A stretch of 64,000 bases of DNA from an uncultured Verrucomicrobiae bacterium (GTDB lineage: Bacteria > Chlamydiota > Chlamydiia > Chlamydiales > Rhabdochlamydiaceae): contig CAVSUE010000001.1 in assembly GCA_963731265.1 (NCBI GenBank), positions 1,888,001-1,952,000 of the forward strand, written 5' to 3'. Below are positions 12,975-14,148 of this stretch, one piece after another (position 1 is the first letter of the stretch; every line of letters begins with the position of its first letter). A program made the position numbers and the translations under genes. The notes below the pieces were generated by a model. It was given only the letters and a program-made list of their open reading frames with translations. It was not told where the DNA came from and did no database searches.

Positions 12975-13098
12975 CTCCTCTTTTCAAAATTGAAAATAAA
13001 ATAAAGGCTGAAGACAATTTTTGTCGATGAAGCAAACCGCTAAAATCGATACAAGGCCCAAAAAATCAAGAGCCGAGACCAATGGTCCAAGGACCAAC

Positions 13099-14148
13099 TT
13101 AGAACTTCCGCCGACCCCCGGCGCCGTCGTTCTTAGAGTCAAAGTAGTAGGGGCTGACACAGAGGCGGGCAGGGGCGGAGCCCCCAACAACCAAGGGAAA
13201 ACCCTGCAGGTGCGTGGATGAACGTCCGGAAGTCAGGGGATTTTGCCCATAGAGGCATTTCTTAAAAATCTTAGATGTAAATACACATAGTGCGACATAT
13301 TCTTGGACTATTGGCATCACACATCCATGTCCTTCAACAATACGTTCTTGCGATTTGTAATTTTTGTTTCGGCTACCCATAAAAACGGTGTTGGTGACCA
13401 GGATACGATATGTTTGCTCTACAGGGATACCTCCTAACTCTTCAATAATGCGATTCCACAGAATATTCACAGTCATTCCTTCTTGTGCTGCTATTTCAAT
13501 CGACTTGTTGAGAGTGTCGCCTTTGATCATGGTCAGCAATGTGACGCCTGCATTATTCTCGACTTGGGGAGCGATCTTTTTGGCCGCTTTAAAAATCTGG
13601 AATGTATTGATCTCTGGCTCGTCATCACACTCTCTTTGTTGCATGGTTGCGTCTATGATCGTCAGCTCGGGACAAATTTGTTTAAGGTCGCATCCTGCAA
13701 AAAAATCTATTGTGAATTGCTTCCAATATGTATTGATACAAGGGAGCGCTGTGATGGTTTTAATATCGCACTGGGATAGACATGTGTTGAAGATGACTCC
13801 CATAATGTCGCGGAAAAATTCAAAGGATGTCGGGGCATCCGGGAAAGTAACATACCCTTCTTGTTCAAAAGGGACAATTTGGGAAGAGGAGGGTTGTTCG
13901 TTAGAAGCTGCGGGTTGAATCTCTTCTCCTCTAATCACTGCAATCATGCTTTGCTTCAGCTTTCCAGCGGCCTCCAAGGTGTAATCTCTATGGGGCTGGG
14001 TTAGAATAGTCTCGATTCTGTTCTTTTGAATTTCGTTTAACCCCGATTTTTCCAGTACACGGAGAGCTGAGTCTGAATAACCCCTGAATGTGAGGGAGGT
14101 CAGTTGTTCTAACATGCTTTTTTGGCTTGAGCTGATATTAGTTGCCAT
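13099..14148 (-). CDS. F-box-like protein with putative C-type-lectin-fold C-terminal domain (candidate effector)
   Basis: F-box-like FFRDIMGVIF...ITALPCINTYWKQF; GCVMPIVQEY resembles the RLPTxxEW motif; ends VGGSAPARLCVSPYYFDSKNDGAGGRRKF. Confidence 0.65.
   Translation of the reverse strand: MATNISSSQKSMLEQLTSLTFRGYSDSALRVLEKSGLNEIQKNRIETILTQPHRDYTLEAAGKLKQSMIAVIRGEEIQPAASNEQPSSSQIVPFEQEGYVTFPDAPTSFEFFRDIMGVIFNTCLSQCDIKTITALPCINTYWKQFTIDFFAGCDLKQICPELTIIDATMQQRECDDEPEINTFQIFKAAKKIAPQVENNAGVTLLTMIKGDTLNKSIEIAAQEGMTVNILWNRIIEELGGIPVEQTYRILVTNTVFMGSRNKNYKSQERIVEGHGCVMPIVQEYVALCVFTSKIFKKCLYGQNPLTSGRSSTHLQGFPLVVGGSAPARLCVSPYYFDSKNDGAGGRRKF

Follow-up and report, generated by a model that had tools for sequence, protein, structure and literature searches.

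The window analysed here, 64,000 nucleotides (nt) of contig CAVSUE010000001.1 (assembly GCA_963731265.1, positions 1,888,001 to 1,952,000), contains on its minus strand a gene of 349 amino acids (aa) at 13099-14148, the 3' end of which resembles the variable region (VR) of a diversity-generating retroelement (DGR). Because the tests for a reverse transcriptase (RT), for Avd and for a template repeat (TR) all failed in the genome of the bacterium itself, the gene represents an orphan target rather than a DGR, and we assign a probability of roughly 85% to the reading that its 3' end is a fossil VR whose enzyme has been lost from the genome. The features on which this reading is built are the following:

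13099-14148, minus strand: the gene, an open reading frame (ORF) of 349 aa with 27 homologues and an AlphaFold model of mean pLDDT 84.8
13102-13602, minus strand: predicted C-terminal domain of the C-type-lectin (CLec)/FGE fold, residues 183-349 (VIA-align, hhalign, BLASTP)
13102-13191, minus strand: template-homologous stretch, that is the whole relic VR, composed of an adenine-poor constant 5' part, a variable core and a GC-rich 3' box
13126-13161, minus strand: variable core of 12 codons (C330-D341), TGT GTC AGC CCC TAC TAC TTT GAC TCT AAG AAC GAC
13102-13125, minus strand: GC-rich terminal box, GGC GCC GGG GGT CGG CGG AAG TTC, the counterpart of the initiation of mutagenic homing (IMH) sequence at the 3' end of DGR VRs
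13058-13097, minus strand: TTGG array, four TTGG in 40 nt, which includes a palindrome at 13083-13096

The last ~150 nt of the gene differ from the rest in composition. Across 13100-13249, the GC content of 100-nt windows reaches 0.63-0.64 as compared to 0.35-0.47 in most of the gene body; for the last ~90 nt the figure is 63-64%, and for the body as a whole ~42%. Third codon positions follow suit, with a GC content (GC3) of 0.70-0.80 over the last 40 codons versus ~0.45 upstream. As third positions share in the rise, amino-acid composition alone does not explain it. The gene closes with the codon CTC, the core, the terminal box and the stop codon TAA. Of the 12 codons from CTC to AAC, eight are NNC and 11 are NNY, whereas the first 300 codons contain 26% NNC and 51% NNY (binomial P 0.003 and 0.004, respectively). 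A preliminary description of this DNA had pointed to a GC-rich tail and to a run of NNC/NNT codons before the gene end, and both observations held when quantified.

Searches with the 349-aa protein returned no domain in Pfam and NCBIfam, no PDB sequence match below E 0.1 and no homologue in the plasmid collection. An alignment of the product with 27 homologues from a sequence search (A1, 28 rows) revealed a conserved C-terminal half, ...GHGCEMPTVQEYVALCVF...GRSST...PLVVGGSAPxRLxV, followed by about ten hypervariable residues and a near-invariant GAGGxRKF end. Scanning 1.84 billion representatives with the A1 profile retrieved 1235 clusters at E≤0.001, among them 119 at E≤1e-30, and the profile matched 39 of 101 sampled genomes of the same bacterial family, often in many copies each. 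Three of the representatives (P0112, P0136 and P0155), proteins of 756-1735 aa, contain 3-6 copies of the C-terminal domain each.

The fold of this domain was predicted from an AlphaFold model built from A1, which was compared by VIA-align against 48,161 chains. For residues 183-349, the Z scores were 9.4 for the C-terminal domain of Bd2740, 8.6-8.8 for SenA and EgtB, 8.6 for PvdO, 8.2 for both the Treponema variable protein TvpA (2y3c) and pFGE, 7.2 for Mtd (1yu0) and 5.9 for TaqVP (5vf4), with the proviso that a Z near 8 may reflect a common arrangement; dozens of C-type lectins followed further down the list. Since this list was uniform and spanned the entire domain, we assign residues 183-349 to a predicted CLec/FGE-like fold that carries the variable residues at its C-terminus, as the preliminary description had anticipated and as the Z scores of 7.2-9.4 to proteins including TvpA and Mtd bear out in the model. 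The A1 profile also aligned with that of the RT-adjacent targets of relatives (A5) over 173 columns, with an hhalign probability of 99.8% and an E-value of 1.7e-27, and BLASTP linked the protein to the DGR target of one relative (G357) at E 1e-18.

In these relatives, homologues of the gene stand next to DGRs. PF00078 matches 31 of the 101 sampled genomes of the same family; because a group II intron RT occurs in one of them (G046), the PF00078 matches in these genomes mix two kinds of RT. The intron, recognised by an RT ORF and an Rfam Intron_gpII match of 56 bits (L049:46-1096), lies 5 kb from the DGR of that genome. Short RTs, encoded by ORFs of 348-362 aa, directly adjoin members of the protein family. 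The DGR RTs score 74-82 bits against RVT_1 and contain the motifs LGNVTSQ and YCDD, the former conforming to the [ILV]GxxxSQ motif of DGR RTs. The accompanying Avd scores 64.4 bits against Pfam bAvd (cut-off 40) and 79.5 bits against the NCBIfam DGR Avd model, just below the cut-off of 80. An example of the TRs reads CTC AAC GTC AAC AAC AAC AGC AAC GAC AAT GAG AAC GTT GGG GTG GGG TGT CGC CGG AA, and it is with such AAC codons of the relatives' TRs that the core at 13126-13161 aligns.

A TR and a VR were present in all ten RT loci examined. In the two genomes examined in detail (G046 and G004), the VRs at the 3' ends of neighbouring genes deviate from the TR almost solely at template adenines, and in G046 three VRs correspond to one TR. 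We extended the adenine test to 12 loci by pairing every TR-like hit with every VR, which gave 20 pairings, of which 14 were kept (at least 75% identity over at least 70 nt). Within these 14, half of the template adenines were mismatched (143/289), whereas mismatch rates at the remaining bases were 2-8% (C 27/347, G 8/367, T 19/281). The six pairings dropped comprised three with a degenerate second TR-like copy in L049, the VRa of L050 (71%), a 53-nt alignment in L078, and L051, which was 69% identical with mismatches at 13 A, 6 C, 0 G and 6 T. RT, Avd and adenine-patterned TR/VR pairs, with the VR at the 3' end of the target, were found in 12 genomes (G046, G004, G045, G010, G357, G226, G405, G363, G247, G238, G181 and G409). 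By every feature tested, the system of the relatives is a DGR. The preliminary description had named, as grounds for giving up its proposal, the lack of an RT and template in genome or relatives, of an adenine pattern and of a CLec fold; RT, Avd and TR were found next to the homologues in relatives, the TR/VR differences follow the template adenines and the fold is present in the model.

The cassette has a characteristic layout, which was the same in 10/10 RT loci: TR, inverted avd and RT, then a target that runs toward the 3' end of the RT in convergent orientation. One strand carries both TR and RT, with avd inverted between them, such that the start codons of avd and RT abut head to head. 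In all ten loci the cassette is chromosomal and abuts a target. The targets vary in their partner domains, and the individual features are:

L049:5861-7381 (G046): inverted-avd cassette; the same layout occurs in L050, L053, L054 and L065-L074
G046 targets: one with a U-box (59.8 bits) and TPR, two with a PARP catalytic domain (28 bits, cut-off 26.7)
G357, G405 and G181 targets: F-box-like domains of 35.6, 30.0 and 32.1 bits (cut-off 24.3)
G238 target: a 1968-aa NACHT and MORN protein
G004 target: a weak F-box-like match, E 0.005
G363 and G247 targets: no Pfam domain found
L050:6996-7088, minus strand, L049:5930-6022, plus strand, and seven other loci: RNA-like element 3' of the TR (alignment A6)

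The TRs diverge from the VRs immediately after GGAA. There, 3' of the TRs, follow ATCCTGTT, a stem-loop in which 7 of 18 predicted pairs show compensatory changes, and the invariant GACGGACTT(G/A)ATCCA; this RNA-like element is a candidate for a priming or RT-recruiting part of the template RNA. Rfam contained no family for the region beside the TR, the sole match being the group II intron in L049.

Among 400 sampled genomes of the phylum, the RT of G004 matched 31 at E≤1e-30, all of the same order and from at least ten families. Thirty of these were 53-100% identical, and many were fragmentary or contained stops. Identity to plasmid-borne RTs was at most 37% among the best 12 rows. Two genomes, G047 with ten copies in one contig and G029 with 14, contain arrays of the target domain, partly in tandem or in ORFs of 900-1100 aa, with no RT hit, indicating that target arrays outlive the retroelement.

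The genome from which the window derives (G000; two contigs of 2.00 and 0.34 Mb, 96% complete) lacks this machinery. PF00078 gave no hit at E≤1 in the two contigs, tblastn with the DGR RTs of G046 and G004 reached E 0.27 at best, and tblastn with the G046 Avd reached E 1.4. Neither a second copy of 13080-13300 nor, by sensitive blastn, one of the VR was detected in the genome. The element that the preliminary description had expected to act in trans is thus missing from both contigs in all its parts, RT, Avd and template. The TRs of G046 and G004 match this genome significantly only at 13102-13191 (E 2e-10 and 1e-4). The organism is, as far as can be judged from its gene content, a chlamydia-like bacterium: it encodes five TLC nucleotide transporters (0 of 14 control genomes match) and one SctV/FlhA homologue, and the nearest named ESM Atlas cluster, which serves as a lead only, is chlamydial.

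We built a DNA model from the VRs and flanks of 19 relatives, leaving out the window gene and dropping one regex false positive (L043). With nhmmer, it recovered the tail of the window gene at E 1.5e-24 and seven sites in the genome overall, all at the 3' ends of ORFs of ~335-349 aa, one of which is split; none of the seven is TR-like. Besides the gene at 13099-14148, these sites are:

18540-19538, minus strand: second orphan target, 332 aa, with an N-terminal F-box-like segment and the same C-terminal domain (DNA model E 2.7e-8); its frame-shifted relic VR lies at 18527-18667
G000:C1:1985456-1985579, 813567-813717, 339446-339586 and 512738-512880, and C2:137326-137460: the other five relic sites, of which the C2 copy is split into two ORFs

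The second orphan target matches Pfam F-box-like at E 0.0011. Its kinship with the first is visible only with profiles and the DNA model: BLASTP between the two gave a best E of 0.18, and hhalign of A1 against the second-target profile (A3) gave a probability of 84% and an E of 7e-6 over the C-terminal domain. Between the two lies, at 14600-18337 on the minus strand, an ORF of 1245 aa that resembles SNF2-type helicases, its motifs having been judged by eye. The six relic copies other than the window gene form an F-box subfamily, with F-box scores of 26.3 bits for L055 (cut-off 24.3) and 17.7-23.2 bits for the others. In these six paralogues, the terminal-box string ..GCGGAAGT.. is read in a different frame (..GAAPGVPAEV..), which argues that the box is conserved as DNA and not as protein. 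As DNA, it is conserved in 20 family members from many genomes.

Since DGRs can serve several distant VRs, as illustrated by the three VRs per TR in G046, the VR of the window gene might still be diversified in trans by a DGR on a phage, a plasmid or an unassembled piece of the same organism. Its box and TTGG array are intact, the completeness of the assembly is 96%, and assemblies often break at DGR loci, with the RT at contig ends in G009 and G024. We nevertheless regard this as very improbable, given that the two contigs hold no RT, Avd or TR, that the cassette was chromosomal and abutting a target in every RT locus, and that two further lines of evidence, the remains of an RT at the orthologous site of a relative and the constancy of the VR among samples, speak for a lost element.

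The first of these lines comes from the closest relative, L061, a metagenome-assembled genome whose orthologue is 78% identical in protein and 85-87% in nucleotides to the window gene. About 130 nt past the stop of this orthologue lies a dead RT relic of 200 codons, corresponding to RT residues 164-352. Homology between L061 and the window ends 47 nt after the stop, and the stretch with the RT relic is gone from the window. A 66-aa RT fragment next to a family member persists in G088, of the same genus, and the RT search reached E 1e-30 in none of 11 other genomes of the genus.

Comparing the two orthologues codon by codon exposed a mutational pattern confined to the core. Over its 36 nt there are 12 differences, distributed 6/6/0 over codon positions 1, 2 and 3, whereas the ~1014 aligned nt outside the core show 29/32/55 (Fisher P 0.0012). 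Judged from the sequences, this pattern in positions 1 and 2 is the product expected from adenine mutagenesis replacing AAC-type codons, and the G032 orthologue displays the same core pattern by eye. A conventional explanation would hold that the tail is a Gly/Ala/Arg-rich motif behind a fast-evolving loop under ordinary positive selection, its likeness to a DGR being coincidental, and indeed GAGGxRKF is conserved as protein in the 27 homologues while the preceding loop varies. We find this hardly credible: all 12 core differences avoid third positions, GC3 is raised too, the same DNA box is kept in another frame in six paralogues, the foreign TRs match this spot and no other in the genome, and homologous domains are TR-templated in relatives.

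Several points weigh against the fossil-VR reading. No TR cognate to the VR of the window was found in its own genome or in the relatives examined; the best foreign TR is 70% identical and shows a moderate adenine bias (A 11/20, C 6/26, G 3/26, T 7/19). The core codon AAG and several NNT codons are not expected from an AAC template, which calls for either a different template or a measure of ordinary drift. With a genome that is 96% complete, a small unassembled element could carry the RT, and contigs mask rare variants, with which low-level diversification would be compatible. Foldseek against the PDB alone gave weak C-type-lectin rows (E 0.2-1), and production of the protein, its secretion and its binding to any partner are presumptive.

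The second line of evidence is provided by assembled contigs of four runs (X1, X2, X4 and X10). A 405-nt piece from X1 and a 174-nt piece from X10 are identical over the VR. The strain of X2 and X4 carries 26 differences and a 2-nt deletion in 12702-13075 (~7%) and, within 13076-13425 (13426 apart), a single change, 13147 G>A, which is synonymous (TAC>TAT). VR variation among the contigs of the four runs thus amounts to zero changes or one synonymous change, rare variants being hidden in contigs, and the VR looks frozen. The preliminary description had left open whether the surface is or was diversified. Because the genome lacks RT, Avd and TR and because the contigs of other samples contain the same VR, the data favour "was", for which the DGRs of relatives, the fold and the codon pattern also speak; "is" fails on the missing machinery and the invariant VR.

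The constancy of the 3' end also bears on whether the gene is merely a functionless relic that drifts toward a pseudogene after loss of the DGR. Such decay would agree with the split copy at C2:137326-137460, with the six copies that lack the canonical reading frame of the terminal box and with the deletion, in the window gene, of a NADAR domain present in the closest relative. For the window gene itself we consider it very improbable, as the ORF is intact, third positions are favoured among its differences from L061 beyond the core (29/32/55), its 3' 350 nt are near-identical in a strain whose neighbouring DNA diverges by ~7%, and confidence in the model is high (pLDDT 84.8). To judge from the sequence, the product probably continues to function as an adaptor of a single specificity, directed against a host protein.

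The preliminary description had further interpreted the palindrome TGGTCC-AA-GGACCA (TGGTCCAAGGACCA) at 13083-13096 as a downstream hairpin of the DGR type. The palindrome is present, occurring once in the window at up to one mismatch, but is not exceptional: 9 of 100 shuffles give at least one match. As DNA it forms a 5-bp stem with a 4-nt loop of -3.0 kcal/mol, and 32 of 200 shuffles of a 26-mer and 22 of 200 shuffles of a 52-mer fold as well. We rejected the hairpin as a conserved structure, since 20 VR flanks gave fold z-scores on either side of 0 and the G032 orthologue has a disrupted palindrome. What recurs behind the VRs is the TTGG motif. The 70-nt flanks of 20 VRs contain 82 TTGG versus 11.1 expected from shuffles, with a period of ~7-8 nt, and no TTGG occurs in the flanks of 12 TRs. 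Given this enrichment behind VRs, the absence after TRs and the unremarkable hairpin, the TTGG array is taken as a candidate recipient mark, and a role in retrohoming may be ascribed to it and to the terminal box. The flank past the stop is 92% identical to that of the G032 orthologue, versus ~78% for the gene. A genome-wide TTGG repeat was also considered and rejected: there are 34 loose TTGG clusters (3-13 in shuffles), and only that of the window gene lies at a VR.

Ahead of the C-terminal domain with the relic VR at its end, the product is composed of an N-terminal helical domain, a linker and an F-box-like segment of three helices:

13927-14136, minus strand: N-terminal four-helix domain, residues 5-74 (helices in the model)
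13816-13908, minus strand: low-confidence linker, residues 81-111, with the stub TFPDAPTSF (pLDDT under 50)
13675-13824, minus strand: F-box-like segment, residues 109-158, with three helices (109-151) in the model

The best structural match of residues 5-74 was a saposin-fold protein (2b8i, Z 7.6), which for a helical piece is not decisive; a paralogue of the N-terminal part alone lies in the same genome at G000:C1:800453-800695 (E 2e-8). At the site of the linker, 7 of the 28 A1 members, closest relatives included, have a NADAR domain where the window gene keeps its stub, reflecting either an in-frame loss in the window gene or an insertion in the homologues.

The preliminary description had called the gene an F-box gene. 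Pfam does not support the label directly, as the F-box and F-box-like models gave no hit at E≤1 in this protein and matched 1 of the 28 A1 members (E 0.091). The support is transitive. For a domain scan, we combined this protein with the best 142 representatives of the A1 profile search. Among the 143 proteins Pfam identified F-box-like in 46, F-box in 42, NADAR in eight, U-box in two, and a protein kinase and PARP domain in one each. In 43 of the 142 representatives, the F-box hits fall at A1 profile positions ~99-144, aligned with residues 109-151. Direct profile comparison to F-box (hhalign, A7 versus A8) gave a probability of 2%, none of the ten best-scoring representatives checked has an F-box domain, the PDB yielded weak sequence matches to the GID2 F-box (E 0.46-0.56), and an ESM Atlas F-box test scored 0.76, which is a lead only. 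Residues ~109-158 are likely, though unproven, to be a diverged F-box. The gene product may be secreted, bind Skp1 and target host proteins.

Taken together, these data suggest the following scenario. In a large protein family of chlamydia-like bacteria, a eukaryote-like module, the F-box being the commonest, is fused to a C-terminal domain of predicted CLec fold. Relatives that possess the element would use it in the canonical manner: an AAC-codon-rich TR would be transcribed and copied by the RT with Avd, which misreads adenines, and the cDNA would take the place of the homologous VR at the target's 3' end, altering the ligand-binding surface and leaving the scaffold constant. The GC-rich ...GGGGGTCNGCGGAAGTTC box, probably together with the TTGG array behind it, would mark the VR as recipient. 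The genome studied here would have lost RT, Avd and template, as a consequence of which its VR became fixed at the single variant CVSPYYFDSKND and is inherited like ordinary sequence.

Receptor-binding proteins of phages and surface proteins of bacteria are the targets for which DGRs are known, and the DGR of Bordetella phage BPP-1 is ordered mtd-avd-TR-brt, with Mtd as the variable protein. The DGRs of the relatives share with it an [ILV]GxxxSQ-type RT, Avd, an AAC-rich TR, adenine-specific changes, a VR at the CLec C-terminus and a GC-rich recipient box, and the model of the window protein aligns to Mtd (Z 7.2). They differ in the inverted avd that separates TR from RT, in a target oriented convergently toward the 3' end of the RT, in the TTGG array behind the VR, with no clear hairpin, and in targets that resemble cytosolic enzymes rather than phage tail fibres; the genome to which the window belongs lacks RT, Avd and TR altogether. 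Treponema denticola TvpA and Thermus aquaticus TaqVP match residues 185-349 (Z 8.2 and 5.9, respectively) and have the scaffold motifs ...GC-MPT-QEY-AL... and ...VVGG... with the variable stretch last. In contrast to these proteins, with which identity is 9-10%, the present domain is shorter (~165 aa), and its fusion partners are F-box-like, U-box or PARP modules, not parts of a lipoprotein or parts for surface display. Legionella pneumophila, also a bacterium living inside amoebae, has a DGR target, LdtA, a lipoprotein exposed on the cell surface; the nearest RTs include one from a Legionella plasmid (34% identity), but the partner domains in the chlamydia-like family are eukaryote-like intracellular modules.

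Ubiquitin-ligase modules as such have precedents in related bacteria. Parachlamydiaceae have expanded F-box, BTB and U-box families in which F-box or BTB is paired with LRR repeats, and the passages of that paper covered here make no mention of a reverse transcriptase, retroelement or lectin (Domman et al., 2014; PMC4209131). These families and the F-box effectors of Legionella resemble the present one in their eukaryote-like ubiquitin-ligase modules, occurrence in obligate intracellular bacteria and multi-copy nature; the Parachlamydiaceae families differ in that the partner here is a CLec domain with a DGR VR, not LRR. Within the passages of the literature covered (PMC8144416, PMC3521204, PMC3417536, PMC8987985, PMC8242063 and PMC4209131), no DGR targets with F-box, U-box, ubiquitin-ligase, ADP-ribosyltransferase or effector modules are described, and chlamydiae are linked to DGRs by group labels only. 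Compared to the print found in this scope, the group of bacteria that carries the DGR appears new, as do the domains to which its targets are joined, the inversion of avd, the TTGG array and the many RT-less genomes with target arrays.

The DGR of the relatives adjoins genes with a constant part that resembles an adaptor or ligase of the eukaryotic ubiquitin system, an ADP-ribosyltransferase or a NACHT NTPase, and the bacteria concerned possess transporters for nucleotide parasitism and a type III secretion gene. We see an even chance that chlamydia-like intracellular bacteria share, across the order, a vertically persistent DGR lineage by which they diversify the part of such host-directed enzymes that recognises the substrate, the enzymes being SCF adaptors (F-box), E3 ligases (U-box), ADP-ribosyltransferases (PARP-like) and NACHT proteins, and not surface or phage proteins. 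If so, it would constitute a natural generator of new ubiquitination or ADP-ribosylation specificities, and a natural counterpart of engineered targeted-degradation adaptors. Should the proteins act in the host cell, an intracellular bacterium could search sequence space for new host proteins to tag. Once the RT is gone, useful variants would be retained as paralogues frozen in sequence, the seven copies of this genome being examples and the window gene representing the end state in which specificity is fixed once the generator is lost. As such relics are recognisable from sequence by their NNC codons, GC-rich box and TTGG array, they could serve to map past DGR activity. The same process would explain in concrete terms how environmental chlamydiae came by their large and puzzling families of effector-like genes, and may bear on shifts in their host range.

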